Assembly: GCA_965208835.1 (NCBI GenBank)
Contig: OZ242358.1
Location: forward strand, 3,232,001-3,296,000
Direction: 5' to 3'
Origin: Candidatus Latescibacterota bacterium
GTDB taxonomy: Bacteria; Latescibacterota; UBA2968; GCA-2709665
Length of the DNA stretch: 64,000 nucleotides
Shown here piece after piece: positions 19,520-32,216 of this stretch. Numbering within the stretch: the stretch's first letter is position 1; every line of letters begins with the position of its first letter. Position numbers and translations under genes: made by a program. The notes beneath the pieces were generated by a model. The model saw nothing but the letters and a program-made list of their open reading frames with translations, searched no databases and was not told the origin of the DNA.

Positions 19520-20410
19520 TCAACCCGCGCTTCGGAAAAACGCCATCAGGTCTTCACGTGCCCGACGACTTCCGTGGACAATGCTGTGAGGTTCGTCTTT
19601 ATACAACCTGAACTCGGCGCCGGGGACCCTCGCTGCCAGATCCCTGCCCCAATCCACCGGTACTTCCCGGTCTCTTGCGCCGTGAACGACAAGCGTTGGC
19701 GCCCGCAGGCGTTTACATTCGACAGACATATCTTTGTCAATGTACGCGTCAATCGACCTCAACTGGGTCTCGTACCACGCCTCGCGATCCTCCAGGCCGG
19801 ACTTCGCCACAAGCCTGCTGACTCGCTCGTCGTATTCCGCCAGCGTTCCCCGTTCCTCCATCTCGTCGCGTTCCCAGAGGACGTCGAGAGAAAGTTCGAC
19901 ACCTTCGGGCCGGCACTTCCAGGCAGCCTCAGATCCCTGTTTATAAAGGATTTCCAACTGTTTTTTAACAATACAGGTAACAGGATCTTCGTCCGGCCAG
20001 AGATGCGCCGCGGTTCCGGCCAAAACCAGTGTCCTGACACGTTCCGGGAAATGCGTTGCAAAGAGGATCGCTATCGGACCCCCGGCGGAGGAACCGATGA
20101 CGTGCGCGCATTCGATGTCGAGGTGGTCCAGCAATTCGACCAAATCGCGCGCCTGGTTCTCCAGGTCATAGCCCGACTCCGTGCGGGAAGACAGCCAGCA
20201 GCCCCGGCGGTCGTACATCACATACCGGAATTCCGACGTGAAATCCATCTCCCATCCCCACCCGCCTCCTGGGTCGGCACGGAGATGCATGTCAAGAGAC
20301 GGGAAGCCACCGTGAACAAACGCGATGACTTCACCTTCTCCTCGGACGTCATAGAACATACGGAAGCCGTTTATATATGTATAGGGCACAGTCTTTGGAT
20401 CCTTACGCAT
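19520..20410 (-). CDS. Alpha/beta fold hydrolase
   Basis: FVHGG, YDRRG, GSSAGG nucleophile elbow, PTLVVHGARD, terminal His. Confidence 0.92.
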   Translation of the reverse strand: MRKDPKTVPYTYINGFRMFYDVRGEGEVIAFVHGGFPSLDMHLRADPGGGWGWEMDFTSEFRYVMYDRRGCWLSSRTESGYDLENQARDLVELLDHLDIECAHVIGSSAGGPIAILFATHFPERVRTLVLAGTAAHLWPDEDPVTCIVKKQLEILYKQGSEAAWKCRPEGVELSLDVLWERDEMEERGTLAEYDERVSRLVAKSGLEDREAWYETQLRSIDAYIDKDMSVECKRLRAPTLVVHGARDREVPVDWGRDLAARVPGAEFRLYKDEPHSIVHGSRRAREDLMAFFRSAG

Positions 20411-20638
20411 AGCACGCAATCAGATTGTCGATTATCTATCGATCCGCTTCGAACGCCAGGTCGACGGGAAATTTGTCACGTGCGAACCGTCCGTCCTCAG
20501 CCGGGTTGTCACCTGCCGCATCGTTGCCATATAAAAACGTAAGGAATCACACTCATATACGCAGGTACGAATCAGGTGTCAAGGTCAATTCCCCGAATGC
20601 GCCGCCATTTTTGCGGCTGCTTTCCAGCTTCCGTTTAC

Positions 20639-20667
20639 TTGACGAAGCCGATCGTTTCGTGTATACT
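20639..20667 (+). promoter_or_regulatory. Sigma-70 promoter of the putative metal-uptake locus
   Basis: TTGACG-N17-TATACT, 47 nt upstream of ATG 20715; spacer region contains an inverted ACGAA...TTCGT pair. Confidence 0.7.
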
Positions 20668-20714
20668 ACCAATTGAAATCCTGTAGGTTCTGTGTTCTTC
20701 CGGAGAAGGTAAGG

Positions 20715-21218
20715 ATGTTTTCGCCCTTCAGACGGCTTCATCCGGTTGTCGTTTTCGCCCTTGCAATATTCGCGGGATACGTTGCGGTCTTTCTACTTGC
20801 CGCCTTCGCCGGACACGATCACGAACAGCAAGGTCACGATCATGAATGTGCTGTCTGCGCCTGGTTCGGCAACCTGAGCATCATTCTGCCGGCAGTGCTG
20901 GTGCTGCAACTTTGCTTTCTGTATTTCAGGCAGGGTTATTTCTCGTTCCGTTCCCCGCACTCTTTCCTCTTTCTGCCGGAAGGACGCGCGTCCCGTGTCC
21001 TGAACCATTTCGGTGTCCTGTCCCGGAAATTTCTCACCATTCGACTGCCGATTCATCCCGTTTCGCTACGTTCCCCTCGCTCGAATCCGCGCGTGCAGAA
21101 GTGGGGCTCGGTTCTGCACGCGGGTAGACTCTCGGGATTGGGTATCGTGCATTCGCGCCCCTCTCCGGGACACGCTACATCCACAACGCCAGATGACCGG
21201 CCCGGCGGATTTGCCTGA
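20715..21218 (+). CDS. DUF2946-like leader protein, copy 1, frameshifted at the RAPP motif
   Basis: TM helix, HDHEQQGHDHECAVC; nearly identical to copy 2 up to PEGRA, then 2 nt shorter, giving RASRV... and read-through to 21218. Confidence 0.7.
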   Translation: MFSPFRRLHPVVVFALAIFAGYVAVFLLAAFAGHDHEQQGHDHECAVCAWFGNLSIILPAVLVLQLCFLYFRQGYFSFRSPHSFLFLPEGRASRVLNHFGVLSRKFLTIRLPIHPVSLRSPRSNPRVQKWGSVLHAGRLSGLGIVHSRPSPGHATSTTPDDRPGGFA

Positions 21219-21306
21219 CGGCACAACCGCAGTTCGTCTGCCATACTGGCGGATGTTCATGCAATTTTCGGGGCGAAGTGACGTATAGGCACACTGGAGT
21301 ACTTTA
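21079..21306 (+). promoter_or_regulatory. Conserved structured 5' leader, copy 1
   Basis: Homologous to 23566-23805 and 26411-26660; perfect 11-bp stem CGCGTGCAGAA/TTCTGCACGCG at 21090-21122. Confidence 0.55.
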
Positions 21307-22572
21307 ATGTTCAGCATGCTGAAGTTGAAGACATCCCTTCGCTGGATTGTGACGGCGGCGGTTTTTGCCGTGTTCGCGTCCGGTTGTGGTAAAGAAGACC
21401 CCATCACGCAGCAGGAAGAGCATTACGAAGCCGAAGGCCTCGTCCTCCTCGACTCCGGCGAGCGGTTCTTTCGTTATTTCCAGGGCAGGATCGACTCGGG
21501 CGAAGGCAGAGCGGAAATCCTGGCGGTCGCTCACGGCGAAGTCACCAGCAAGTGGAGCATTCGCTTCCTGGACAAAGACGGAAACGAAATGGCGCCCCCC
21601 ACCGGCGAGGGCTTCAGTTTCACGTGGGAGATCGCGGACACGTCAATCGTGGAGGTCGTCCAGGACGCGGGGGAAGCGGGTAAATTCGTCTTCGCCCTGC
21701 GCGGCCTCGAAGATGGCGAAACCACCATCAAGCTTCAGATTTCGCACGAGGGGCACATCGACTTCACCACGGTGCCGCTCCCGGTGTACGTGGTAGAAGA
21801 GCACTCGTCCCATTTCAATGCGGAAGGGCTTGTCATCATCGAATCCGGCGTTCGATTCTTTCGCTATTTCCAGGGCGAGATCGACTCGGGCGAAGGTCGG
21901 GCATCGGAACTCACGGCCCCAATTGGCCTGACGCCTCACTGGCGCATCATGTTTCTGGACGAACACGGCGATGAAAAGGACCCGCCGGACGATCCGGTAT
22001 TCACGTTGGGCTGGACCATTGCCAACCCCGACGTTCTCGAAGTCGTTCAGGACGAGGGCGACGAAGGTTCATTCGAGTTTCACCTGCGCGGCTTGCAGGA
22101 GGGCCAAACCACGATTGTATTCGAAGTCTGGCACGAAGGGCACGTTGACTACACCACACGACCCATTCCCGTACACGTGGAGTCACAGGAGGGCCAGCAC
22201 GGCGAACCCGTGGGCGTTCGGCTTAAGGAAGAAGACAGTGACGAGTTGCTTACACAGGCGCCGGTTAAGGGAGAAGGCGAAGCCACCGAGGCCCTGACCG
22301 TTGCCGTAGGCGACACAACCGACCACGTCGCGACATTCTTCTTTGACGAAGACGACGTTGAATTCCAGCCGGAAGCGCCCGATCACACGCTGGGCATCGC
22401 GGTGGCCGACACCTCGCTGCTCGCCATCGATCCGCCCGCAGCGCCCGAATACTGGGCGTTCAGACTCATCGGCAAGAAAGCGGGCACGACCACCATTACG
22501 CTTTCCATTTTACACGACGGCGAGGCGGAGGACGAATTCGCGCCCATTTCGGTAGCAATCACCGCACAATAG
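21307..22572 (+). CDS. His-rich repeat lipoprotein (2 repeats plus divergent C-terminal domain), putative metal-binding
   Basis: GGAG RBS; lipobox FASGC; repeats with AEGLV, RFFRYFQG, HEGHxD[FY]TT; acidic composition. Confidence 0.85.
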   Translation: MFSMLKLKTSLRWIVTAAVFAVFASGCGKEDPITQQEEHYEAEGLVLLDSGERFFRYFQGRIDSGEGRAEILAVAHGEVTSKWSIRFLDKDGNEMAPPTGEGFSFTWEIADTSIVEVVQDAGEAGKFVFALRGLEDGETTIKLQISHEGHIDFTTVPLPVYVVEEHSSHFNAEGLVIIESGVRFFRYFQGEIDSGEGRASELTAPIGLTPHWRIMFLDEHGDEKDPPDDPVFTLGWTIANPDVLEVVQDEGDEGSFEFHLRGLQEGQTTIVFEVWHEGHVDYTTRPIPVHVESQEGQHGEPVGVRLKEEDSDELLTQAPVKGEGEATEALTVAVGDTTDHVATFFFDEDDVEFQPEAPDHTLGIAVADTSLLAIDPPAAPEYWAFRLIGKKAGTTTITLSILHDGEAEDEFAPISVAITAQ

Positions 22573-22661
22573 CAGGAAACGTGGGGAAGGGTTGGTTCTA
22601 GCAGTCCGTTAATAAAGTCGCTCTCCAGGAAGCCTGGATGGGCTTTTTCAACGGGCTGCCA

Positions 22662-22821
22662 GCCCTCCCTCCCTCTGCAACGTCGGAGTACATTGCAGAT
22701 GACTCACGTATACAGGATAAGGCTTTTGCCCGGATTGTCTGCCTGATCACCGAGCCTGGCAGGCGGCCCTCACAATCTACAACCTGCCGGACCGACGGGT
22801 CCGTGTTCCTGTACGGGATCA
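22662..22821. repeat. Conserved 160-nt element downstream of lipoprotein 1
   Basis: Colinear homolog of the same length at 26213-26372 (GCCCTCCC...GTACGGGATCA). Confidence 0.75.
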
Positions 22822-22938
22822 CCAGAACCCTGGCCGGTACGAGGTCCTGCGGGTCGAACGGAACGGGTTCGGAATTTACGTTTCCGGTATTTTATGGCTG
22901 TATCCAGGTTCGTTTTGCGCTCATCTGGAGACCGCAGG

Positions 22939-23235
22939 ATGTCTTTTTCCTCCCGACGGATTCACCCGGTTGTCGTTATCGCGCTGGTGATATTCGCGGC
23001 CTACCTGGCGGTATTCCTGCTTGCCGCGTTCCCCGAACACGATCATAATCAACCATGTCACGATCACGATCAACCATGTGCCGTCTGCGGCTGGTTCAAC
23101 AACCTGAGCATCATTCTGCCGGCAGTGCTGGTGCTGCAACTTTGCTTTCTGTATTTCAGGCAGGGTTTTTTCTCGTTCCGTTCCCCGCACTATACCCTCC
23201 TTCTGCCGGAAGGACGCGCGCCTCCTGTGTCCTGA
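22939..23235 (+). CDS. DUF2946-like leader protein with CxxC and C-terminal RAPP motif, copy 2
   Basis: 98 aa: TM helix, EHDHNQPCHDHDQPCAVC, ends PEGRAPPVS; GGAG upstream of ATG 22939; upstream of lipoprotein and TonB receptor genes. Confidence 0.85.
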   Translation: MSFSSRRIHPVVVIALVIFAAYLAVFLLAAFPEHDHNQPCHDHDQPCAVCGWFNNLSIILPAVLVLQLCFLYFRQGFFSFRSPHYTLLLPEGRAPPVS

Positions 23236-23303
23236 ACCATCCTGGTGTCATGTCCCGTAAATTTCTCACCATTCGACTGCCGATTCATCCCGTCTCGCTG
23301 AAA

Positions 23304-23438
23304 CGTGGTCATTGAGCTTGTCGAAATGCCCGCGTTTCAATATCCGTCGTTGGTTAATCTATATCCCTTCGCCGACCCTTCGACAAGCTCAGGGAGCGGC
23401 TCAGGTCTCACCCGCTGGTTCCTGAGCCTGTCGAAGGA
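23304..23438. repeat. REP-like element (CCCTTCGACAAGCTCAGG family)
   Basis: CCCTTCGACAAGCTCAGG and inverted CCTGAGCCTGTCGAAGG; first 30 nt identical to 40207-40236. Confidence 0.75.
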
Positions 23439-23542
23439 TGCGAGCCGGGCGACTAAGCTGTCGAATTCAGGCAACCTATTTCCGGGACAGAACACCGGCG
23501 TGTCTTCCTGACACGTCTTCCGTACTTCCAGATTTTTTCAAA

Positions 23543-23805
23543 CAGGTCATTCCAGGTCGGCCCTGGCTCGAATCCGCGCGTGCAGAAGCGTGGATCGGTT
23601 CTGCACGCGGGTAGACTCTCGGGATTGGGCAAAGCGCATTCCCGCCCCTCTCCGGGTCAGTCGACACCCGTATCGCCGGATGACCGGCCCAACGGGTTTG
23701 CCTGTCGGCAACTTGCCGGCACAACCGCAGTTCGTCTGCCACGCGGGCGGATGTTCATGATATTTTTAGGGGCGAAGTGAGATTCCAGTACACAGGAGAA
23801 CATTA
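23543..23805 (+). promoter_or_regulatory. Conserved structured 5' leader, copy 2
   Basis: Same 11-bp stem (23577-23609) with a different loop; CAGGTCATTCCAGGTCGGCCC identical to 26411-26431. Confidence 0.55.
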
Positions 23806-26184
23806 ATGTTCAGCATGCTGAAGATGAAAACATACCATCACTGGATTGCAACAGCGGCGGTTCTTGCCGTGTTCCTGTCCGGTTGTGGAAAAGAAGACCC
23901 CATTACGCAACAGGAAGAGCATTATGAAGCCGAAGGCCTCGTCCTTCTCGACGGAGGCCAGCGGTTCTTCCGGTATTTCCAGGGCAGGATCGACTCGGGG
24001 GACGGCCGTGCGGAAGCCCTGGAGGTCGGTCACGGCGAAGTCACCAGCAAGTGGAGCATCCGCTTCCTGGACAGGGAAGGCAACGAAATGGCGCCCCCCA
24101 CCGGCGAGGGTTTCAGCTTCACGTGGGAAATTGCGGACACGTCGATTGTGGAAGTCGTTCAGGACGCGAGCGAAGTGGGCAAATTCGTCTTCGCCCTGCG
24201 CGGCCTCAAAGATGGTGAAACCACCATCAAGCTTCAGATTGCACACGAAGGACACATCGACTTCACCACGGTGCCGCTGCCGGTACACGTGGGAGGAGAG
24301 TTCGAGGCGGAAGGGCTCGTCATTATCGAATCCGGCGTTCGATTCTTCCGTTACTTCCAGGGCGAAATCGACTCTGGCGACGGTCGGGTATCGGAACTCA
24401 CGGCGCCGGTTGGCATGACGCCCCACTGGCGCATCATGTTTCTGGATGAAAACGGCGATGAAATAGATCCGCCGGAGGATCCCGAATTCACGTTCGGCTG
24501 GACCATCGCCGACCCCGACGTGGTCGAAGTCGTTCAAGACGAGGGCGACGAGGGTTTATTTGAGTTCCACCTGCGCGGCTTGAAGGGGGGCGAAACCACC
24601 ATCGTGTTGAAGGTCGAACACGACGGACACACGGATTTCAGCACCAAACCCATTCCCGTCCACGTGGAAGAAGAGTTCGCGGCGGAAGGGCTTGTCCTCA
24701 TCGAATCCGGCGTTCGATTCTTCCGTTACTTCCAGGGCGAAATCGACTCTGGCGACGGTCGGGTATCGGAACTCGAAGTACCGGTCGGCCTGACGCCACA
24801 CTGGGGCATCAAGTTTCTGGACGAAAACGGCGATGAAATAGATCCGCCGGACGATCCGGAGTTCACGTTGGGCTGGACCATCGCCGATCCCAACGTGCTA
24901 GAAGTCGTTCAGGACGAGGGCGACGAGGGTTCTTTCGAGTTTCACCTGCGCGGCTTGAAGGGGGGCGAAACCACCATCGTGTTGAAGGTCGAACACGACG
25001 GACACACGGATTTCAGCACCAAACCCATTCCCGTGCACGTGGAAGAAGAGTTCGCGGCGGAAGGGCTTGTTCTCATCGAATCCGGCGTTCGATTCTTCCG
25101 TTACTTCCAGGGCGAAATCGACTCTGGCGACGGTCGGGTTTCGGAACTCGAAGTACCGGTCGGCCTGACGCCACACTGGGGCATCAAGTTTCTGGACGAA
25201 AACGGCGATGAAATAGATCCGCCGGACGATCCGGAGTTCACGTTGGGCTGGACCATTGCCGATCCCAGCGTGCTCGAAGTCGTCCAGGACGCGGGCGACG
25301 AGGGTTCTTTCGAGTTCCATCTGCGTGGCTTGCAGAAGGGCGAGACCACCATCGTGTTGAAGGTCGACCACGATGGACACACGGATTTCACCACCAAACC
25401 CATTCCCGTGCACGTGGAAGAAGAGTTCGCGGCGGAAGGGCTTGTTCTCATCGAATCCGGCGTTCGATTCTTCCGTTACTTCCAGGGCGAAATCGACTCT
25501 GGCAACGGTCGGGTATCGGAACTCGATGTACCGATCGGCCTGACGCCGCACTGGCGCATCAAGTTTCTTGACGAAAACGGCGATGAAATCGACCCGCCGG
25601 AGGATCCGGAGTTCACGTTCGGCTGGACCATTGCCGACCCCAACGTACTCGAAGTCGTCCAGGACGCGGGCGACGAGGGTTCTTTCGAGTTCCACCTGCG
25701 CGGCTTGCAGGAGGGCGAAACCACGATTGTATTCGAAGTCAGACACGATGGGCACGTTGACTATATGACACAGCCCATTCACGTACACGTGGAGGCACAG
25801 GAGGGTCAACACGAGGACCCCGTTGGTGTGCGGCTTAAGGATGAAGACAGCGACGACGTTCTCACCCAGGCGCCGCTGAAGGGAGAAGGCAATGCTACCG
25901 AGGATCTGACGGTTGCCGCAGGTGATTCGACCGACCACATCGTGGCGTTCTTCTTTGACGAACACGACGTGGAATTCCAGCCGGAGGCGCCCGACCACAC
26001 GCTGGGCATCGCGGTGGCCGACACCTCGTTGCTCGCCATCGATCCGCCTGTAGCGCCCGAATACTGGGCCTTCAGACTCATTGGCAAGAAAGCTGGTACC
26101 ACCTCAATCACCCTTTCCATTCTCCACGACGGCGAGACGGAAGAAGAATTCGCGCCGATATCGGTGGAGATCACCGCACCATAG
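23806..26184 (+). CDS. His-rich repeat lipoprotein (5 repeats plus divergent C-terminal domain), putative metal-binding
   Basis: Paralog of 21307-22572; lipobox FLSGC; four near-identical 125-aa units with HDGHxD[FY], FHLRG and TPHW. Confidence 0.88.
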   Translation: MFSMLKMKTYHHWIATAAVLAVFLSGCGKEDPITQQEEHYEAEGLVLLDGGQRFFRYFQGRIDSGDGRAEALEVGHGEVTSKWSIRFLDREGNEMAPPTGEGFSFTWEIADTSIVEVVQDASEVGKFVFALRGLKDGETTIKLQIAHEGHIDFTTVPLPVHVGGEFEAEGLVIIESGVRFFRYFQGEIDSGDGRVSELTAPVGMTPHWRIMFLDENGDEIDPPEDPEFTFGWTIADPDVVEVVQDEGDEGLFEFHLRGLKGGETTIVLKVEHDGHTDFSTKPIPVHVEEEFAAEGLVLIESGVRFFRYFQGEIDSGDGRVSELEVPVGLTPHWGIKFLDENGDEIDPPDDPEFTLGWTIADPNVLEVVQDEGDEGSFEFHLRGLKGGETTIVLKVEHDGHTDFSTKPIPVHVEEEFAAEGLVLIESGVRFFRYFQGEIDSGDGRVSELEVPVGLTPHWGIKFLDENGDEIDPPDDPEFTLGWTIADPSVLEVVQDAGDEGSFEFHLRGLQKGETTIVLKVDHDGHTDFTTKPIPVHVEEEFAAEGLVLIESGVRFFRYFQGEIDSGNGRVSELDVPIGLTPHWRIKFLDENGDEIDPPEDPEFTFGWTIADPNVLEVVQDAGDEGSFEFHLRGLQEGETTIVFEVRHDGHVDYMTQPIHVHVEAQEGQHEDPVGVRLKDEDSDDVLTQAPLKGEGNATEDLTVAAGDSTDHIVAFFFDEHDVEFQPEAPDHTLGIAVADTSLLAIDPPVAPEYWAFRLIGKKAGTTSITLSILHDGETEEEFAPISVEITAP
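24298..25797 (+). repeat. Intragenic tandem repeat, 4 x 375 bp
   Basis: GAGTTCGxGGCGGAAGGGC starts at 24298, 24673, 25048 and 25423 (exact 375-nt period). Confidence 0.95.
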
Positions 26185-26194
26185 CTGGAAGCAC

Positions 26195-26223
26195 GGCGGG
26201 AGGGCGAGAACCGCCCTCCCGCC
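26195..26223 (+). other. Strong hairpin without U-tract after lipoprotein 2
   Basis: GGCGGGAGGGCG-AGAAC-CGCCCTCCCGCC, perfect 12-bp stem. Confidence 0.6.
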
Positions 26224-26372
26224 TGCTGCAACGTCTGAAAACTCTGCAGATAGATGAACTACACAGGATGAGGCTTCTGCCCGGATTGTCGGCCTGATGC
26301 CCGAGCCCGCCAGGCGGACCTCACAATTTTCAACCTGCCGGGCCGACGGGTCCGGATTCTGGTACGGGATCA
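26213..26372. repeat. Conserved 160-nt element downstream of lipoprotein 2
   Basis: Homolog of 22662-22821. Confidence 0.75.
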
Positions 26373-26410
26373 ACAGAGCGGGGCCGGCACGACGTCCTGG
26401 TCTTTTAAAT

Positions 26411-26660
26411 CAGGTCATTCCAGGTCGGCCCCGACTCGATCAGAAATGCGGCACGGATCGACGCGGATGGACCCTTGGGACCGCGTATCGCGGATTCCCG
26501 CCCGTCGTGGGTTCAGGCTACGTCCGCAAGTGCGGGTAATCCGCCCGGAAATCTGGCATTTCGCCAACATACCGGCGAATCTGCGGTTCGTTCACTACGT
26601 CGGCGGATGCTCACGATTGATTCGGAGCGAAATGAGATTCCGGTACACTGGAGAAAAATA
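26411..26660 (+). promoter_or_regulatory. Conserved 5' leader, copy 3 (diverged), upstream of TonB receptor
   Basis: Shares CAGGTCATTCCAGGTCGGCCC, ATTCCCGCCC, GTTCGT...GGCGGATG and GCGAAxTGAGATTCCxGTACACxGGAG with copy 2. Confidence 0.5.
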
Positions 26661-28901
26661 ATGTCCAGCACACTTAAAGTGAAGACATCCAGTCAATTGA
26701 TTGCAACAGCGGCGCTCGCGTTGTTGTCAATGGTCTGTCTCGCGGGTATCAGCTCGGCAAATCAGGCCGTGTTGATCGAAGGGTATGTCTTCGACGGCGA
26801 AACCGGACTGCCCGTCAGAAATGTGAACGTCCTCGCCGCGGATCACGCCGCGCGCGCGTCTACGGACGGAAAAGGCCGGTTCGTGCTCCAACTGTCTCCT
26901 GGTGCTTATCGGCTGTCACTTACGCACGTCGGCTATCGGGAAACGCGCCACGAACTGAACATCTCAAGCGCCAGGCATCCCGTTGTCTATCTGGAACTGG
27001 CGCGACTGGACCACAAGCTGGATCCCATCGACGTTGTGGCCAGACGCGCTGAAACCCGATTTGAAGAACTGCATGAGGCCACCCGTGTGCTTTCTGGCGA
27101 CGAACTCAGGAAGAAATACAGCATCACCCTGGCCGAGACCATGAAGAACGAACTCGGCGTTGCCATCCGAAGCATGGGACCGGCGCCGGCCCGCCCCGTT
27201 ATCCGCGGGCTCAGCGGCGACCGTGTACAGATCAACGTCGACGGGATTCAGTCTCAGGATCTTTCGGCAACGTCGGCCGATCACGCGGTAACCGTCGAGA
27301 CTTTCAACGCGGAACGCCTGGAAATCATCCGCGGACCCCGCACGCTGCTGCACACGGCCACGGCCGGCGGCGGTGTAATCAACGTCGTCAAGCACAAGAT
27401 CCCTGAGACCCGCCCGAAGCGCTTCTTCGGGAGCGTGGGCGCCTACGGAGAAACGGCGAACCGCGGATATTTCTCGTCCGCCGCCCTAACCGCGCCCGTG
27501 GGGCCGCTCGCGTTGCACGCCGAGTCCACGTACCGGGATACAAGGGACATCCGGACCCCGGTCGGCCGGCTTGCCAACACGCCCATCAACACCCGCACAC
27601 ATGCACTCGGCGTTTCCTACGCGGGCGAACGGGGATACGTCGGCGCTTCTTTCGACCAGTTCGATACTCATTACGGCATTCCCGGCGGATTCATCGGCGC
27701 GCATCCCAACGGCGCGGACCTCGATATCATGCGCCGGGTCTTCGATGGGAGGGCTGTCTATCGGTTCGACGGCGGGACGGCAGACAGAATCGAGGCAGGC
27801 TTCACGAGGACCTATTACTACCACGTTGAGTACGAATCAAGCGGCAGTATCGGATCCGAGTTCCTTTTTCATGACCACAGCGGCGATCTCAAACTCTACC
27901 TGAACTCGGGAAACAAGGAGCAAAACACCGTTCTCACCGCCGGCTTTGAACACCGCGATCTCAAGCTGGGCGGTTTTGTCTTCACCCCGCCCACGCGCAA
28001 GCAGGACGTCAACTTCGGGCTGTATCACGAGACTATCTATCGCAATATCGAACTACAGGTCGCGACCCGTTACACCTATACCACCTTCGACCCGCGCCTG
28101 GAGGCGTTCTCCAACGCGAGCCTGGATGTAGACCGCACCTTCCATACATGGTCCACCGCATTCAGCCCGCTATTGCCCATTACCGACCAGTTGACCGCGG
28201 GCTTCAGCCTCAACCGCTCCCAGCGCGCGCCCACCATCGAGGAGCTCTACAACGAGGGACCGCACCTTGCCGCTTACACCTTTGAGAAGGGCAACGTCGA
28301 ACTCAATGCCGAACGCAGTTTCGGCGCAGAGGCATTCTTCCACTACCTGCGGCCGGGATTCGACCTGGTCTTCACGGGATTCTGGAACGAATTCGGCAAT
28401 TACATTGCGCCGCGAAATACGGGAGAAATCAACTGGTCTCAGCTACTTCCGATCTACGCCGCGGAAGGTATAGGCGCGAGAATGACGGGCGTGGAATCCC
28501 ACCTGAAATGGCGCCCGAACGCGCGATTGGAGCTGGAGATGAAACTGAGCCATGTGCGCGGTGAAAACCAGGACGACGGTACGCCCCTGCCCGAAATGCC
28601 GCCGCTCAAGTTCGTGGGCAGCGCAACCTACAGGCACCCCTGGCTTACCGGCGGCGGAACCGTGGAGTGGGCCGCGGGGCAGAACCGCGTGGATACCTAC
28701 GAAGACCCTACCGCCGGTTATTCCATCTTCGGCGTTTACGTACAGCGGGATTTCCAAACGAACCACGCCCGCCACAGCTTTATCCTTTCTCTCGAGAATC
28801 TTCTCGACACGGAGTACCGCAACCACCTGTCTCGCATCCGGTCCGTGATGCCTGAAACAGGCAGGAGTCTGAAGTTGAACTACAAAATGTATTTCTTTTA
28901 A
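26661..28901 (+). CDS. TonB-dependent receptor, ZnuD-like (probable metal uptake)
   Basis: ATG 26661 with GGAG RBS; N-terminal carboxypeptidase-regulatory-like domain; plug RPVIRGLSGDRV and SADHAV; RAPTIEELY, NLLDTEYRNHLS; terminal Phe. Confidence 0.92.
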   Translation: MSSTLKVKTSSQLIATAALALLSMVCLAGISSANQAVLIEGYVFDGETGLPVRNVNVLAADHAARASTDGKGRFVLQLSPGAYRLSLTHVGYRETRHELNISSARHPVVYLELARLDHKLDPIDVVARRAETRFEELHEATRVLSGDELRKKYSITLAETMKNELGVAIRSMGPAPARPVIRGLSGDRVQINVDGIQSQDLSATSADHAVTVETFNAERLEIIRGPRTLLHTATAGGGVINVVKHKIPETRPKRFFGSVGAYGETANRGYFSSAALTAPVGPLALHAESTYRDTRDIRTPVGRLANTPINTRTHALGVSYAGERGYVGASFDQFDTHYGIPGGFIGAHPNGADLDIMRRVFDGRAVYRFDGGTADRIEAGFTRTYYYHVEYESSGSIGSEFLFHDHSGDLKLYLNSGNKEQNTVLTAGFEHRDLKLGGFVFTPPTRKQDVNFGLYHETIYRNIELQVATRYTYTTFDPRLEAFSNASLDVDRTFHTWSTAFSPLLPITDQLTAGFSLNRSQRAPTIEELYNEGPHLAAYTFEKGNVELNAERSFGAEAFFHYLRPGFDLVFTGFWNEFGNYIAPRNTGEINWSQLLPIYAAEGIGARMTGVESHLKWRPNARLELEMKLSHVRGENQDDGTPLPEMPPLKFVGSATYRHPWLTGGGTVEWAAGQNRVDTYEDPTAGYSIFGVYVQRDFQTNHARHSFILSLENLLDTEYRNHLSRIRSVMPETGRSLKLNYKMYFF

Positions 28902-28934
28902 TGTCCACTCGCCGTCGACGGAAAGACAAATCAA

Positions 28935-28977
28935 CAGCCCCGTGTCAGTCGTTATACACGGGGCTGGCTTTTTTTTT
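28935..28977 (+). terminator. Rho-independent terminator
   Basis: CAGCCCCGTGT / ACACGGGGCTG stem followed by a T run, just after the receptor stop. Confidence 0.9.
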
Positions 28978-29203
28978 GGTCTGATCGTCGAACCCTGGCA
29001 GCATACCAACGGCGAAAAAACTACTCGTATTCCAGGCTCTCAGCACGCCGTTCCGCATCCCTGCCCGACATCGCCCGCCGCATCACGCGTTCCACAACAC
29101 GTGGAAACCAGGTACCCCGAACAACCGCCGTACCGTTTCCGAAACCCGGGACAAGCCGACGTTTTCTCTTACCGATGCCCCGAAGGATGACCTCCGGCGA
29201 TAA

Positions 29204-30163
29204 TCAGACCCCTACGGCATCGGCCATGAATCCTTGATATGCTTCGCGATAGTGAGGCTCCCAATCCGCCCGATCAGGTTGCCATTGCCGGGCGGCCATC
29301 CAGCCCAGGGCGATCTTCGTTGCGGTATCCAGGTCGGAACCCTCGAGGCTCGCGAGTCCCGCTTTGCGGCGTTTTGCAGCCATTCTGGGGACGAGGTCCC
29401 TGTGGCCGGGTCGATTTCTGTCCCCTGAATTCAAGACCTGGAGATACGCGGGATCCAGAATCCACGGGCGGCGATTCGGGTGGATATCGATCAGGACCGC
29501 GCGCTCCCCTTCCGGCGGCGGATCTCTCATCAATCCGTTGCACAGGTGAAAGTCTTCGAAACAGGTTTCGGATCCACACTTCGCGAGGATGAACTGCCAA
29601 TGGTCATCGAGTCTCGACAGAAGCCCGTCGACGGGTCCCGGACAACGCTGCCGGATCCCGCCCTCCAGCCAGCCGGAGACTTCGGTCCGCGACGTGACGT
29701 CCAGCGTGGGATCGTTAATCAGGTTCGCGTATTGATAGAAGCGAGTCCCCGCGTCGAGCATCAACTCGAACTCCCTTCCGTTCCAGGAATTCCCCAGAGG
29801 TCCGTAAGGGATGGCTTCCGATGCCAGCCAATGCACGTCGATCTCCCCCAGGCGGGATCCCGCGGCATAGACTCCCGGGACCAGGTCCGGCGCACGGCGA
29901 TTCAGTTCCCTGCACCAGAAGTTTTCTCGCGGGCTGGTACCGACTTTTATAATGACGACCAGGCCCGTTTCTCGATGCAACCCCCGGAGATGCACCGCTC
30001 TCAATCCGTATTCCTGGACGAACAGCTCGATGTTGCTCGCGATTGAAGTGATTTCTGCCGTCTGGTTCACGGCGTCAAGAATCGCCCGCAAGACCGCGTC
30101 CGACCGCGATACCCGTCCATGGTGGCCGAAGATATTCACTGAACAATTCCTGTCTTGTCGCAT
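29204..30163 (-). CDS. Aminoglycoside phosphotransferase / kinase-like protein
   Basis: IIKV, EDFHLCN (Brenner-like), VLID; divergent. Confidence 0.65.
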   Translation of the reverse strand: MRQDRNCSVNIFGHHGRVSRSDAVLRAILDAVNQTAEITSIASNIELFVQEYGLRAVHLRGLHRETGLVVIIKVGTSPRENFWCRELNRRAPDLVPGVYAAGSRLGEIDVHWLASEAIPYGPLGNSWNGREFELMLDAGTRFYQYANLINDPTLDVTSRTEVSGWLEGGIRQRCPGPVDGLLSRLDDHWQFILAKCGSETCFEDFHLCNGLMRDPPPEGERAVLIDIHPNRRPWILDPAYLQVLNSGDRNRPGHRDLVPRMAAKRRKAGLASLEGSDLDTATKIALGWMAARQWQPDRADWEPHYREAYQGFMADAVGV

Positions 30164-30217
30164 ATGGAGCCGCTCGTATCGGCACTGTTTTCGAAGACCT
30201 GATCAGCCACCGGGACG

Positions 30218-31300
30218 TCAGAAGTGGTCTGGCGCCCAGAAGATTACCTCGCGGCGGGGGAACCACGCTTCGAGTTGGCGAATTTCCCCGGCTTCAAGCG
30301 AAATCCCACGGGCGCGAAGGATCGGTTCCAGGTCGCGGCCCGAGGACTCTCCAAACAGGAGCCGGCACACCAGGTCGACCGGCAGCCTGCGCGCCAGTTC
30401 CGCCGCATCGGGAACGGTCATGGCGATCAGCGACTCGACATCGCACGGCAGGACCATCATCGAGTTGTCGCCCCCGAGTCTCAGGTCGGCGTCGGTGGCG
30501 GCGACAAGAGCGTCGACGAAGGCGTGGCCGTGGGGAATCACGCCGTGGACCCGGGTCACCCCGGCTTCGTCAATCACGCACTGAACGAGGGTATCAAGGG
30601 CGGACGCGTTGTCGTAAGCGACCTCATACACCGTCGCTTCGTCGCCATTCCGCACCCAGTTCATGTAACCGCAGAGTCCCGCCGGGCTACGGACGACGAC
30701 GGCGGGCAGCACGCCTCGCACGCGTGAGGGCGCGTAGTCCCAGTACGGACGCGGACGCAGCATCGTGCCGCTCCGGCCGGCGTTGTGACGCTCATAGAGC
30801 GCGATCGTCTCCTCCAGGTCGCGGCTCTCATCGAACGGCAGGACTTCGAGCGCGCGCCGCTCCCGGTTCGGAGAAAGTCGCAACTCCGCGTGAAAGCCCA
30901 TCAGCGGTACGCAGCACCAGCCGAGGCGCCGGTAGAATCGCGCAGGAATCGCGCTGAAGAGCAGACCCAGGTCATATCCATCGTCCCGCATGTGCTCCGC
31001 CGCATGCTCCATCAGGCGGGTGGCGATGCCGCGTTCACGGTAATCGGGATGCGTGGTAACGCCGCCGATGCCGCCCATGCGAACGGGTGTGGCGCCGAGG
31101 TGGACCCGGCGGTCCCAGATGCGCAGCGTGGATACGATCCGATTGCCGACAACGACAACCGGCGTGTGCGACGGGCGCCACGTCGGGTCGCCTTCGATAT
31201 AACCCCGGTACCGCTCACGGCCGTCGGGGTTGTGCACGGCGCAGAGCAGATCCAGGAGATCCTCGAGCTCCGATTCACGAATTGGACGAATCGTTTCCAT
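30218..31300 (-). CDS. GNAT acetyltransferase (Eis-like)
   Basis: GGIGGVTTHPDYRERGIA, FYRRLGW; likely start ATG 31300. Confidence 0.9.
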   Translation of the reverse strand: METIRPIRESELEDLLDLLCAVHNPDGRERYRGYIEGDPTWRPSHTPVVVVGNRIVSTLRIWDRRVHLGATPVRMGGIGGVTTHPDYRERGIATRLMEHAAEHMRDDGYDLGLLFSAIPARFYRRLGWCCVPLMGFHAELRLSPNRERRALEVLPFDESRDLEETIALYERHNAGRSGTMLRPRPYWDYAPSRVRGVLPAVVVRSPAGLCGYMNWVRNGDEATVYEVAYDNASALDTLVQCVIDEAGVTRVHGVIPHGHAFVDALVAATDADLRLGGDNSMMVLPCDVESLIAMTVPDAAELARRLPVDLVCRLLFGESSGRDLEPILRARGISLEAGEIRQLEAWFPRREVIFWAPDHF

Positions 31301-31349
31301 GGTATTCGTTTTGGCCTGACGAACGCAGCCTCCGCGCGGCGATCTGTTG

Positions 31350-32216
31350 TCAGCCGTCGATTGCCAGCGACAATCCGTCGTATGCGATTCTGTACCCGTT
31401 TTCCGCGGCATAGGCGTCGAGTTCGTCGTGCTCCAGGTATCCTTCGTGCGAAATGTGAGTCGCGTAGACCCGTGCGTTGTCCTTCAGGAGACCGCTGCGC
31501 CTGAAGCGGTCCACGTGGCCGATGACGTCGACGGATGCAAGATGGTCGGGCGGGCTGATGTCGATTCCGACGCCGTATGTGTGATCGAGGATGAGCAGAT
31601 CGAACCGGGTGCCGGCAATCAGCAGGTGCTCCCATACGTGCTCCGGAAGCACCGAGGTATCCGTACCGTAGAATATGGCCTGCCGGCCCTGCTCGATCGC
31701 ATAGAGCAGGGCGCCCTCTACCGTGCCGTGGTTCGCGGGAAACCCTGTGACGCGATAATTGCCGATGACACGTCCCTCGAATGGCTCGAGGCGCAACGGA
31801 TCGATCCCAAGCGCACGCCGGGCCTTTCGATCGAAGATGCTGCCGTATCGGCATCTCTCGGACAGGTCGTTGTCGATGGCTCTCAGCGTATCGATTGAAC
31901 CCGCCAGTATCATCTCTTTCGCGAGGACAGTCCCATAGGACTCGTGCCTCGACATGATGAACTCGGGGTCGTAGTGGTCCTCGTGGGCGTGCGTCATGAG
32001 GCAGACGCCGATTCCCGTGAGGGATACGTCATGGACGTATGACGCGCTGACGACGTCCGGACCGATATCCACCATCAGGTCGTCGTTGACGACGATGGAC
32101 GACCGCCTTCTGAGGTTCTTTCCGCCCGCCCGCCTCGCGCCGGTACAGGCCTCGCACACGCAGAACGGGCTGGGCACCGAAGGCGCGGCCGATGTTCCGA
32201 GAAACATGACTTGCAT
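31350..32216 (-). CDS. MBL-fold metallo-hydrolase (PhnP-like)
   Basis: FLGTSA, CVCEAC, THAHEDH, THISH, AYDG. Confidence 0.92.
   Translation of the reverse strand: MQVMFLGTSAAPSVPSPFCVCEACTGARRAGGKNLRRRSSIVVNDDLMVDIGPDVVSASYVHDVSLTGIGVCLMTHAHEDHYDPEFIMSRHESYGTVLAKEMILAGSIDTLRAIDNDLSERCRYGSIFDRKARRALGIDPLRLEPFEGRVIGNYRVTGFPANHGTVEGALLYAIEQGRQAIFYGTDTSVLPEHVWEHLLIAGTRFDLLILDHTYGVGIDISPPDHLASVDVIGHVDRFRRSGLLKDNARVYATHISHEGYLEHDELDAYAAENGYRIAYDGLSLAIDG

Follow-up and report, generated by a model that had tools for sequence, protein, structure and literature searches.

A conserved leader, His-domain lipoprotein and ZnuD-type receptor gene set, possibly for zinc acquisition, in Latescibacterota and Bacteroidota

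What would a locus take up, and how would it be controlled, in which a small reading frame, a His-rich repeat lipoprotein gene and a TonB-dependent receptor gene follow one another? Such a three-gene set (leader, lipoprotein, receptor) was found in a sponge-associated bacterium, Candidatus Latescibacterota, within a 64,000-nt stretch of contig OZ242358.1 (the window). As shown in Table 1, all parts of the layout described in an earlier sequence-only reading, i.e., a promoter, two rounds of leader, untranslated region (UTR), lipoprotein gene and '160-nt element', then the receptor gene and a strong terminator, were located in the window. The terminator is missing from our hairpin scan, the loop limit of which was 8 nt vs. 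the 10-nt loop present here. Promoter-like sites of the TTGACG-17-TATACT type are weak evidence alone (3 observed in the region vs. 2.4 expected in shuffles); the -35 and -10 of the leader 1 promoter are also kept ahead of 'first' leaders in relatives and are absent before leader 2. We consider it somewhat better than an even chance that the locus is a zinc-acquisition module under leader control, belonging to the Fibrobacterota-Chlorobiota-Bacteroidota group and built on a core of a small leader, a surface lipoprotein of Ig-like His domains and a ZnuD-type receptor, and that it has grown by tandem duplication in this genome to two leader-lipoprotein units, seven repeats and one receptor.

Table 1. 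Features of the locus, with positions in the window.
Feature	Position	Strand	Remark
Sigma-70-like promoter TTGACG-17-TATACT, ahead of leader 1	20639..20667	+	promoter scan and relatives
Leader 1: hydrophobic segment, His run, CAVC; arrest motif destroyed	20715..21218	+	
C-rich, G-poor tract directly 3′ of the ancestral leader 1 stop	21000..21097	+	C/G ratio 2.0-2.15
Conserved 5′ UTR of lipoprotein 1 with GGAG ribosome-binding site	21074..21306	+	
Lipoprotein 1, 421 aa: lipobox ...SGC, C-G-K-E-D-P, 2 His-domain repeats, variant C-terminal domain	21307..22572	+	
'160-nt element' copy 1, coding-end relic of a C-terminal sorting-type domain	22662..22888	+	
Leader 2, 98 aa: hydrophobic segment, HDHNQPCHDHDQPCAVC-W, second hydrophobic stretch, ...LPEGRAPPVS-stop	22939..23235	+	
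C-rich, G-poor tract spanning the leader 2 stop and beyond; conserved	23220..23297	+	C/G ratio 2.0
Insertion in UTR 2, a dispersed genomic repeat	23300..23560	+	absent from unit 1
Conserved 5′ UTR of lipoprotein 2	23561..23805	+	
Lipoprotein 2, 792 aa: signal and C-G-K-E-D-P of lipoprotein 1, 5 repeats, variant C-terminal domain	23806..26184	+	
'160-nt element' copy 2, same relic, more decayed	26213..26399	+	
Pre-receptor copy of the 3′ part of the UTR; without leader ORF, without C-rich tract	26392..26660	+	
TonB-dependent receptor, 746 aa, ZnuD type: CarboxypepD_reg-like N-terminal domain, plug, barrel	26661..28901	+	
Intrinsic terminator: 11-bp G+C-rich stem, 10-nt loop, nine T	28935..28977	+	read from sequence

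In the synteny survey, the leader - lipoprotein - receptor set proved to be conserved in Latescibacterota as well as in the Bacteroidota phylum. This order was seen in all 20 relatives' loci fetched, and the leader is present in 35 of 41 related genomes. For 51 Latescibacterota loci from genome contigs, which partly share genomes, a leader match was obtained in 45 and a receptor match in 47. In the Bacteroidota phylum the lipoprotein domain occurs in 68 of 251 sampled genomes; where loci with the lipoprotein were examined (39), its gene adjoins that of the leader in 35 and that of the receptor in 37. The '160-nt element' was rejected as a regulatory element. Its copies (22662-22826 and 26213-26377) are 81% identical, and the translation of copy 1 resembles the sorting-type C-terminus of the gene upstream of a third unit, in locus L009 (27/48 identical, E 2e-16), which itself matches FlgD_ig, CHU_C and Por_Secre_tail; judging from this translation, the element is the fossil coding end of a neighboring gene, spread by duplication. 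As for the insertion in UTR 2, its positions 23300-23500 have 41 matches in the organism's own genome and very high contig depth.

The proposed likeness of the receptor to ZnuD of Neisseria meningitidis (PDB 4rdr, NCBIfam NF038289) held. Searched against solved structures, the receptor family profile gave ZnuD as the best relative in a near full-length alignment (E 1.9e-82), ahead of PhuR (2.6e-31) and OprC (2.5e-26), and both the plug and the 22-strand barrel families match. Asp99, His100, Glu340 and His499, given in PMC4557270 as the ligands of the buried, high-affinity ZnuD zinc site, align to D207, H208, E390 and H535, which are invariant in 31 receptors. Unlike ZnuD, the window receptor reaches 191.6 bits with the NCBIfam ZnuD model (cut-off 950), has an added CarboxypepD_reg-like N-terminal domain and belongs to a family that invariably comes together with a lipoprotein and a leader; it lacks a counterpart of the His/Asp-rich loop 3, a stretch of ~64 residues for which the receptor family has ~12 counterpart positions, and its set is found in environmental or symbiont phyla, not in respiratory pathogens. 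In one relative (locus L120) the genes for ZnuA, an ABC ATPase, an ABC-3 permease, a FUR-family protein, the leader, the lipoprotein and the receptor follow one another co-directionally, those for ZnuB, the fur-family protein and the leader being just 0-4 nt apart. Another locus (L127) carries a Pfam-confirmed ABC-3 permease, ExbB and ExbD 3′ of the receptor, and a further one (L128) a gene of the same size at the position of that permease, a candidate by size alone. By phmmer, a znu/fur link was found in one of the 39 Bacteroidota-phylum loci, most of which lie among unrelated genes, and comparison of the genome's own znuA region with the leader promoters gave no shared operator. Since the four ZnuD ligands are invariant and znuABC with a fur-family gene adjoins the set in one relative, zinc can be inferred as the metal of the system, which the sequence-only reading had held not to be determinable. 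Onward transport would fall to the single ZnuA-type system of the genome.

Copper has to be weighed here, as the CxxC invariant in 31 leaders is the copper-sensing motif of CruR (PMC9426467), OprC, third among the solved relatives, is a copper receptor and Cu(II) binding is also possible at His-rich sites. The leader would then sense copper as in CruR and CutF, and lipoprotein and receptor would import it, e.g., for copper enzymes. We regard this as quite unlikely: ZnuD is a far better match than OprC, with its four zinc ligands kept, the NCBIfam TonB-copper model gives the window receptor just 51.9 bits, and CopA, PCuAC, YcnI, CopC and multicopper oxidase are absent from the scanned neighbors, among which ZnuABC and a fur-family gene are present. 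Moreover, of 35 Bacteroidota-phylum leaders 28 have Cxx[CH], nine of these with His in place of the second Cys, and seven have no such motif; Cu-related uORF contexts are also reported to be lacking in Bacteroidota (PMC12992588). A system for haem (or a different tetrapyrrole), with the tandem Ig-like His domains binding it at the surface in the manner of hemophores, much as arrays of NEAT domains do, appears very unlikely. The haem-family scores are all far under the cut-offs, the four-residue buried zinc site is intact, and fold searches with the lipoprotein domain gave generic Ig-like surface domains, with no haem-binding domain among the matches listed. What speaks for haem is that TIGR01785 and TIGR01786 match partially, with 126-131 bits, that PhuR and ShuA are among the solved relatives of the receptor, that ZnuD is structurally akin to haem receptors (PMC4557270) and that a chlorite-dismutase-family gene, hinting at tetrapyrroles, lies directly 3′ of the receptor in six loci of family f2; yet no haem-utilisation genes were found in the other loci scanned, and the chlorite-dismutase neighbor is limited to one genus and therefore may be mere inherited synteny.

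Under the zinc reading, the lipoproteins would act at the cell surface. Their mature N-terminus agrees with C-X-K-(D/E)2-X, the surface lipoprotein export signal of Bacteroidota (PMC5080379), in keeping with the location first proposed for them, and export would proceed via this signal. The repeats have a period of 375 nt, and beside the seven repeats (2 + 5) each lipoprotein has one variant C-terminal domain. HxGHxD[FY] is present in every window repeat as described before, and FHLRG and PHW, also named as repeat motifs, in five of seven each; family-wide, just HxxHxD plus an N-terminal His is kept, and not PHW or FHLRG. The 125-aa repeat has no Pfam family; an AlphaFold2 model of the domain (pLDDT 94) is Ig-like. 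In 171 canonical domains, conservation is 89% for H4, 98% for H112, 98% for H115 and 94% for D117. These residues suggest that each domain captures Zn(II) through the N-terminal His plus H-x-x-H-x-D; zinc would then be handed to the receptor, in which the buried Asp-His-Glu-His site is kept and the capture loop of ZnuD is missing.

Alternatively, the receptor may import zinc while the lipoprotein is a structural accessory or lid, or binds a ligand already loaded with zinc, e.g., a zincophore or a protein from host or sponge; the His residues would then serve folding or an interface. Adjacency by itself is no demonstration of function, and the fold is that of a generic surface Ig-like domain; H-x-x-H-x-[DEHN] is absent from 93 of 277 full-length domain matches, mostly variant C-terminal domains, and elsewhere the domain is joined to dockerin-like regions, to sorting tails and to peptidase domains of M12 type, which would suit a surface module of general use. 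Three His and one Asp conserved at 89-98% are unusual for a purely structural Ig-like domain, however, the loss of the ZnuD loop leaves a role to fill, and the canonical domain alone has been multiplied (two and five copies), which fits more valency for a small ligand. We therefore hold an accessory lipoprotein to be a possible but unlikely solution, and return to metal capture. Here the locus resembles SusCD-like pairs of Bacteroidota, in which a surface lipoprotein encoded beside a TonB transporter captures the ligand first and which share the Bacteroidota-type export signal. In TbpB-TbpA of Neisseria and HmuY-HmuR of Porphyromonas, too, a surface lipoprotein encoded beside its TonB transporter makes the first contact with the ligand. 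Unlike SusD, TbpB and HmuY, the lipoproteins here consist of tandem Ig-like domains for a presumed free metal ion, and unlike in these pairs their genes precede that of the receptor. By description they can also be likened to ZepA of Anabaena, a cell-surface/extracellular Ig-like beta-sandwich with a conserved three-His cluster, which mediates zinc uptake and is often encoded close to a fur-family regulator, ZnuA and TonB transporters (PMC10957091). In contrast to the lipoproteins here, ZepA is anchored by PEP-CTERM, not lipid, has the motif H-X2-9-H-[FY]-H and a second novel domain, and is under transcriptional Zur control, not that of a leader; it is reported in 0.3% of other phyla's genomes (PMC10957091).

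The leaders had been taken for DUF2946 proteins ending in RAPP. In favor of the family are the N-terminal hydrophobic segment, the CxxC, the R[AS]PP 2-3 residues from the stop and the fixed spacing; DUF2946 is also their top Pfam family (17 of 31 at E<=1, best 1.1e-4; next family, 4 of 31). Because the scores miss the Pfam cut-off (12.2 and 10.6 bits for the window leaders vs. 23.7), the leaders are, on present sequence comparison, relatives or look-alikes of DUF2946 and not annotated members. H34, C47, C50, W52, P90, R93, P95 and P96 are invariant in 31 aligned leaders, with a CxxC-to-R distance of 42 or 43 in all of them. RAPP and RSPP are found in 28 and 29, respectively, of 57 unique Latescibacterota leaders, 55 of which have 2-3 residues after the motif; the 35 Bacteroidota-phylum leaders have RAPP (25), RSPP (6) or RGPP (4). 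In the window, leader 2 ends in GRAPPVS-stop and leader 1 is without RAPP: relative to leader 2, a 2-nt deletion between 20990 and 20991 changes ...GRAPPVS-stop to ...GRASRVL..., and the frame continues to 21218, about 75 extra codons. As contigs of two other public runs (X5 record 9, X6 record 16) span the site gap-free with the same deletion, it is real and no assembly error; orthologous first leaders in relatives end in ...GRAPPVS-stop.

Similar to CruR (Bp2923) of Bordetella pertussis and CutF of Rhodobacter capsulatus (DUF2946, PF11162), as PMC9426467 and bioRxiv 10.1101/2022.11.11.516240 describe them, the leader is a small first operon gene with an N-terminal hydrophobic or export segment, a CxxC (CxxxC in CutF) ~45 residues ahead of a C-terminal R-A-P-P placed 2-3 residues from the stop, and an extended untranslated stretch separating it from the gene that follows; a TonB receptor lies downstream as in CruR. 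In CruR itself, the mechanism of which is Rho-dependent, CXXC and RAPP are 45 residues apart and RAPP is 3 residues from the C-terminus (PMC9426467); the ribosome arrests when the P and A sites hold Pro codons, an RSPP motif is partly permissive, and TonB receptors are preceded by an excess of RAPP uORFs (PMC12992588). The leaders here differ in their sub-threshold Pfam scores and in the spacing of 42-43 instead of 45. They also have an additional His run, a Trp that always follows CxxC, another hydrophobic stretch that separates the sensor from the arrest motif and, in roughly half of the Latescibacterota sequences, RSPP; the next gene encodes a lipoprotein, the proposed metal is zinc, not copper, and Latescibacterota and Bacteroidota are not among the phyla listed for DUF2946 in PMC9426467. 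The presence of two hydrophobic segments points to a membrane protein of hairpin shape, the DUF2946 cut-off is missed and the locus persists though leader 1 has lost its motif, so the small ORFs might instead encode stable membrane proteins (a metallochaperone or an anti-sigma-like partner) with an incidental R(A/S)PP. This is highly improbable given that even leaders with as little as 24-37% identity keep R-[AS]-P-P, always 2-7 residues from the stop (57 + 35 unique leaders), that the fixed distance of 42/43 residues parallels that in CruR and CutF, that RxPP arrests and is among the most avoided proteome tetrapeptides (PMC12992588), and that the ORF is always first in the set.

By analogy with CruR and CutF, ribosome stalling at the leaders is the probable on/off switch of the set. 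Expression would be controlled in cis, the ribosome stalling when its P and A sites hold the two Pro codons of R(A/S)PP; at that point the His/Cys cluster, 42-43 residues upstream, would be just out of the tunnel, and metal sensing by it would change the stall duration. With the ribosome stalled, the final leader codons and the beginning of the C-rich tract would be covered, which would keep Rho off the mRNA (as in CruR) and/or keep these codons from pairing with the ribosome-binding site of the lipoprotein (as in CutF). The C-rich tract after leader 1 is the best conserved non-coding piece (88-93% identical to relatives). In family f2, pairing between the final leader codons and the ribosome-binding region spans 13-15 contiguous bp and ranks in the top 1-7% against 258 control regions; for window leader 2 the pairing (9 bp, -20.4 kcal/mol) is matched by 12.8% of controls and is not distinctive. 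Just 8 of 45 pairs, which are related sequences, fall in the top 5%, and L082 is a counter-example. A hairpin in the pre-lipoprotein UTR (alignment A4, columns 14-51) is 82.7% paired, with no covariation above shuffles.

As leader 1 is broken and the receptor is without a leader of its own, this control may be partly lost in this genome. The gene set itself recurs in two bacterial phyla and has never been studied before, and its lipoprotein family is as yet unnamed.

Two units, each made of a small CxxC-containing ORF (leader), an untranslated region and a His-rich lipoprotein, precede a ZnuD-type TonB-dependent receptor in the window, as listed below. Aligned to each other, the two units have a mean column identity of 78%, and no Rfam family was found at E≤1 in the region 20000-29500. 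The flanks (19520-20419 and 29204-31411, both -) lie on the opposite strand and carry an alpha/beta hydrolase and an ORF without a Pfam match; the flanking ORF at 30218-31411 (-) is known by its coordinates alone, and the flanks show no link to metals.

Features of the locus in the window and of related loci elsewhere (G000, the window's own genome; L numbers, loci from other genomes or elsewhere in G000)
Feature	Position	Strand	Remarks
Promoter TTGACG-17-TATACT, sigma-70-like	start of the 20639-28977 span	+	before leader 1
Leader 1	20715-21218	+	paralogue of leader 2, frame runs on
Conserved untranslated region	between leader 1 and lipoprotein 1	+
Lipoprotein 1, 421 aa	21307-22572	+	2 repeats, then variant C-terminal domain
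Repeated non-coding element, copy 1	22662-22888	+
Leader 2, 98 aa	22939-23235	+
Untranslated region 2	between leader 2 and lipoprotein 2	+	longer than the first
Lipoprotein 2, 792 aa	23806-26184	+	5 repeats, then variant C-terminal domain
Repeated element, copy 2	26213-26399	+
Leaderless copy of the 3' part of the untranslated region	between element copy 2 and receptor	+
TonB-dependent receptor, 746 aa	26661-28901	+
11-bp G+C hairpin, then nine T	28935-28977	+
Third unit	G000:C1:4730979-4733016 (L009 4938-7017)		behind 5'-nucleotidase-like gene with sorting-type C-terminus
Chlorite-dismutase-family gene	L021 8125-8838	strand of receptor
Chlorite-dismutase-family gene	L022 7261-7971	strand of receptor
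Chlorite-dismutase-family gene	L023 9171-9911	strand of receptor
Chlorite-dismutase-family gene	L025 8173-8904	strand of receptor
Chlorite-dismutase-family gene	L029 8540-9271	strand of receptor
Chlorite-dismutase-family gene	L032 5325-6095	strand of receptor

The sequence-only reading had described this order of genes in the window, and a synteny survey found it in relatives: leader, lipoprotein (with one to several domains) and receptor follow each other in all 20 of the relatives' loci fetched first, with variants such as leader-leader-receptor and leader-lipoprotein-leader-receptor. A search of genome contigs gave 51 loci, some of them drawn from the same genomes, with a leader match in 45 and a receptor match in 47. 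A locus from Melioribacteraceae has the same three genes, and its leader ends in ...LRAPPVDFSV-stop. In the Bacteroidota phylum, 68 of the 251 genomes sampled have the lipoprotein domain. A lipoprotein was present in 39 of the 40 loci fetched from that phylum; 35 of these 39 have an upstream small ORF ending in [RK][AGS]PP plus 2-6 residues, and in 37 the receptor comes next. These counts include kin that are not independent, and many of the loci share one common neighbourhood.

Leader 2 reads, in order, as a basic N-terminus, a hydrophobic segment, HDHNQPCHDHDQPCAVC-W, a second hydrophobic stretch and ...LPEGRAPPVS-stop; CAVC occurs in both window leaders. Leader 1 is without the C-terminal RAPP owing to a 2-nt deletion between 20990 and 20991, which turns RAPPVS-stop into RASRVL... 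and leaves the frame open to 21218. Because contigs from two further public runs of other studies or samples cross this site gap-free, we consider the deletion real; first leaders orthologous to leader 1 are intact in sister genomes. Leader homologues were found in 35 of 41 related genomes. Among 31 leaders with identities down to 24%, only columns H34, C47, C50, W52, P90, R93, P95 and P96 are invariant, and the spacing from CxxC to R is fixed in all 31 at 42 or 43 residues (f1 and f2, respectively, two families of related genomes). Judged by reading their sequences, all leaders have a hydrophobic stretch of about 22 residues after N-terminal basic residues, a candidate for the export signal or transmembrane segment that CruR/CutF leaders have at this end. 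Unique leaders from Latescibacterota (n=57) end in RAPP (28) or RSPP (29), followed in 55 of them by 2-3 more residues, while those from the Bacteroidota phylum (n=35) have RAPP (25), RGPP (4) or RSPP (6). Two tandem leaders without a lipoprotein between them occur in L026 (2151-3145, genome G021) and L033 (2141-3134, genome G002); the second leader in L026 is without the second hydrophobic stretch and keeps CAVC-W and GRSPP.

The leaders had been proposed to be of the DUF2946 type, as are the copper-responsive arrest peptides CruR and CutF. The CxxC and the RAPP of leader 2 speak for this, whereas leader 1 is without RAPP and the HMM search missed the gathering cut-off of Pfam DUF2946 (PF11162), set at 23.7 bits: the genome search gave 12.2 and 10.6 bits, and leader 2 alone 11.7 bits. 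With 17 of the 31 leaders matching at E≤1 (the best at 1.1e-4), DUF2946 is nevertheless the commonest Pfam match; the family in second place matches 4 of 31. Precomputed Pfam domain annotation was found for none of 61 database homologues of the leader. In CruR the distance from CXXC to RAPP is given as 45 residues, with RAPP 3 residues from the end (PMC9426467). The CruR/CutF spacing is about 45 (within 1-2), and at 42-43 the leaders here are 2-3 residues shorter than 45. CruR and CutF exert metal- and RAPP-dependent control of downstream genes, as the present leaders may. Since these share motifs with CruR and CutF but miss the DUF2946 cut-off, we file them with CruR and CutF as a putative divergent branch that is unannotated, or as look-alikes, and not as DUF2946 members.

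The leader stop is followed directly by 80-100 nt that are rich in C and poor in G (C/G ratio 2.0-2.15). This tract is absent before the leaderless receptor and is the best conserved non-coding piece (88-93% identity). In CruR, copper is described as relieving the arrest and so permitting Rho termination (PMC9426467), and by analogy the tract would fit a Rho-loading site. The CruR arrest is reported to place two Pro codons in the P and A sites, with RSPP partly permissive; in Gram-negative bacteria, uORFs with RAPP or RGPP are reported to precede TonB receptors more often than expected (PMC12992588). A ribosome arrested in the same way with Pro-Pro in these sites would cover the last 2-3 codons and the stop of the leader. 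For CutF, the stall is described as exposing a Shine-Dalgarno sequence that is otherwise shielded (bioRxiv 10.1101/2022.11.11.516240). Leader and lipoprotein are separated by about 90-290 nt in family f2, in most cases by 120-140 nt, and there the end of the leader, from its last codons through the stop, is complementary to the ribosome-binding region of the lipoprotein along an unbroken 13-15 bp (-19 to -23 kcal/mol). Among 258 control regions such pairing ranks within the top 1-7%. A matching pair of changes, stop TGA to TAA and C to T, is seen at one locus; another locus is a counter-example. For the window's genus the pairing is 9 bp long (-20.4 kcal/mol) and is equalled by 12.8% of controls, and overall 8 of 45 pairs fall in the top 5% of controls. 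Pairing that masks the ribosome-binding site, clear in family f2 but not distinctive in the window's genus, was accordingly reduced from a general rule to a hypothesis. A structured UTR RNA was set aside: the RNAalifold covariation term was only -1.45, and a 13-bp UTR hairpin was 82.7% paired, but its covariation score was reached by 267 of 500 shuffles. By analogy with CruR, we assume that the direction of control would be on at low zinc. With leader 1 broken, lipoprotein 1 may be read through constitutively, while lipoprotein 2 and the receptor may depend on leader 2.

The lipoproteins are built of a 375-nt repeat, and their variant C-terminal domains are still recognised by the repeat profile. 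A recount in the window's lipoproteins agreed with the motifs named from sequence, namely HxGHxD[FY] in 7/7 repeats and FHLRG and PHW in 5/7 each. Conservation across 171 canonical domains (G9 99%, H112 and H115 98%, D117 94%, H4 89%, E6 67%, H95 50%, H47 32%) limits the family signature to an N-terminal E-H-x-E-A-x-G and H-x-x-H-x-D; the histidines of PHW and FHLRG belong to particular lineages. H-x-x-H-x-[DEHN] is absent from 93 of 277 full-length domain matches, mostly variant C-terminal domains. An AlphaFold2 model from an alignment of 19 domains (pLDDT 94, pTM 0.86) showed an all-beta sandwich of 11 strands. In Foldseek and a wide structural search its best match was the S-layer protein SbsC (Z 8.5, rmsd 2.6 Å over 87 residues), followed among the top matches by Sap, LigA (Z 6.8) and Rib, all generic Ig-like surface domains; no specific metal- or haem-binding fold stood out in these searches. 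Matches to CrdA (Z 5.0) and PmoB (Z 4.9) were within noise.

No family covering the lipoprotein domain was found in Pfam or NCBIfam; Pfam Big_2 scored 15.2-16.5 bits against a cut-off of 22.8. Protein Atlas matches were unnamed clusters only, from Balneolota, Ignavibacteriota and Fibrobacterota, and no paper on this family was found in the main texts of the open literature. An exhaustive profile search of a 50%-identity library matched the representatives of 610 clusters at E≤0.001, of which 272 also reach E≤1e-10; each has 1-5 domains, in some cases joined to a sorting tail, a dockerin-like region or an M12-type peptidase domain. The His domain is also C-terminal in non-lipoprotein surface proteins (L078 5284-6384; L089 3292-6384; P0166, P0065, P0076): one has dockerin-like repeats, one of 1030 aa has HELGH, which we take to be a metalloprotease signature, and others have M12-type peptidase domains. 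Both window lipoproteins have a lipobox ...SGC and, as read from sequence, a mature N-terminus C-G-K-E-D-P; the mature start is C-G-S-D-D-P in family f2 and acidic at +2 to +5 in the Bacteroidota-phylum loci. The window motif agrees with the export signal of Bacteroidota-type surface-exposed lipoproteins, which after the lipobox Cys is C-X-K-(D/E)2-X (PMC5080379) or S-D-D-like.

The receptor has the Pfam domains CarboxypepD_reg, Plug and barrel. NCBIfam ZnuD (NF038289) was the best of its 26 NCBIfam matches at 191.6 bits, below the curated cut-off of 950. A profile of 31 module receptors matched ZnuD (4rdr) over almost the full length with an E-value of 1.9e-82. Behind ZnuD came the haem receptor PhuR (2.6e-31), the next match, and the copper receptor OprC (2.5e-26). 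The buried high-affinity site described for ZnuD consists of Asp99, His100, Glu340 and His499 (PMC4557270). These residues align to D207, H208, E390 and H535 of the window receptor (HMMER, 4rdr chain index +14), and all four are invariant in 31/31 receptors. ZnuD also has a His/Asp-rich extracellular loop 3 with outer zinc sites, to which the module receptors have no counterpart: this stretch (chain index 255-317) was unaligned, with about 12 profile positions there. A weak point for zinc is a chlorite-dismutase-family gene of 236-256 aa that lies 3' of the receptor in six loci, all of which belong to a single genus in the sister family. In L022 it is followed in turn by a cation-efflux (CDF) gene.

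ZnuD is induced by zinc limitation under Zur control, and for the module a context that may bear on such control was seen in L120, a locus from one genome of the Bacteroidota phylum, where a fur-family gene and znuABC are directly upstream. The genes there form one tightly packed row (G210:C80, 6639-12867) that reads in a single direction: ZnuA, ABC ATPase, ABC-3 permease and FUR-family protein first, then a leader, a 2-domain lipoprotein and a receptor. By their coordinates, the ZnuB, fur-family and leader genes are 0-4 nt apart. In another locus (L127) the receptor is followed by an ABC-3 permease, ExbB and ExbD; L128 has the same gene sizes, with ExbB and ExbD identified by phmmer and a 281-aa gene known by size alone. 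The link to znu genes, a second weak point, occurs in few loci (1/39 by phmmer). The window's genome has its only ZnuA gene elsewhere (L157, G000:C1:4011700-4014600), with a FUR-family gene behind it. Before the ZnuA gene lies the end of a gene for a membrane protein, and the gene after the FUR-family gene is a COG0523-like candidate, presumably a CobW/COG0523-type GTPase by the look of its N-terminus. Comparison of this znu region with the leader promoters for a Zur box gave no common word of at least 10 nt and no common palindrome. From the best match to ZnuD, the four invariant ligands and the znu/fur context, we therefore infer that the metal of the module would be zinc, with copper and haem as less likely rivals.

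Translated, the stretch that had been called a 160-nt element is 27/48 identical (E 2e-16) to the C-terminus of the gene preceding the third unit, whose intact C-terminal domain matches FlgD_ig, CHU_C and Por_Secre_tail. A regulatory RNA was thus ruled out, as the element translates into a decayed sorting-domain end. The third unit, 1.48 Mb away in the same genome, has a leader with an intact ...GRAPPVS-stop and a 2-repeat lipoprotein, and is without a receptor; the duplicated unit and the relic probably derive from it. Because the element is a decayed copy of the end of the third unit's upstream gene, we conclude that a unit was copied into the operon along with the end of its upstream neighbour, and that a second duplication then included the lipoprotein. 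The -35 box kept by all first leaders is lost at internal leader 2, and an insertion of about 260 nt in untranslated region 2 (23300-23560) is a dispersed repeat, 23300-23500 having 41 matches on both strands of the own genome. Together with the broken leader 1, these features suggest that the arrangement has recently expanded and is partly decaying. Positions 23300-23560, 21044-21154 and 22598-22708 have 10-50 times the baseline contig depth in public runs. No RNA data set was among the 21 public runs listed as carrying the sequence.

To our knowledge, outer-membrane zinc capture is understood in few pathogens only (ZnuD, CbpA/TdfH, zincophores) and for one cyanobacterial exoprotein (ZepA), and control by ribosome arrest in response to a metal has been shown for copper only. 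In their way of working, the parts of the module have known counterparts: CruR and CutF for the leaders, ZnuD for the receptor, and other pairs of a surface lipoprotein with its receptor. Among functional analogues of the lipoproteins ZepA comes closest; it is described as a zinc-capturing Ig-like surface protein (PMC10957091). Its motif is H-X2-9-H-[FY]-H vs. H-x-x-H-x-D here. New are the unnamed lipoprotein family, its fixed pairing with a loop-less ZnuD-type receptor and, probably, a zinc-responsive arrest leader in phyla without reported DUF2946.

We tentatively propose, as a reading that we hold at somewhat less than even chances, that the locus does for zinc what the known arrest-peptide switch does for copper. 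Zinc would be sensed at the ribosome exit by a nascent peptide with His and Cys, which would thereby gate Ig-like zinc-capturing surface lipoproteins not recognised before; these would replace capture by the His-rich loop of ZnuD, and their domain number (7 copies here) would be raised by tandem duplication for valency, the whole forming a standard zinc-piracy module. In this proposal, the higher capture valency would serve a zinc-poor sponge or marine habitat, and the carriers would be Latescibacterota, Ignavibacteria, Balneolales-like and other lineages of the Bacteroidota phylum. With its duplicated unit and domains, carried gene fragment, inserted dispersed repeat and leader without an arrest motif, the locus shows evolution in progress, and the lipoprotein family, which has neither a name nor a Pfam model, is one to be named. 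If the proposal is true, the zinc-sensing leader with its short fixed architecture would be the second case of metal-dependent arrest after copper, and the module would be a protein-based route of zinc capture for a large part of the FCB group.
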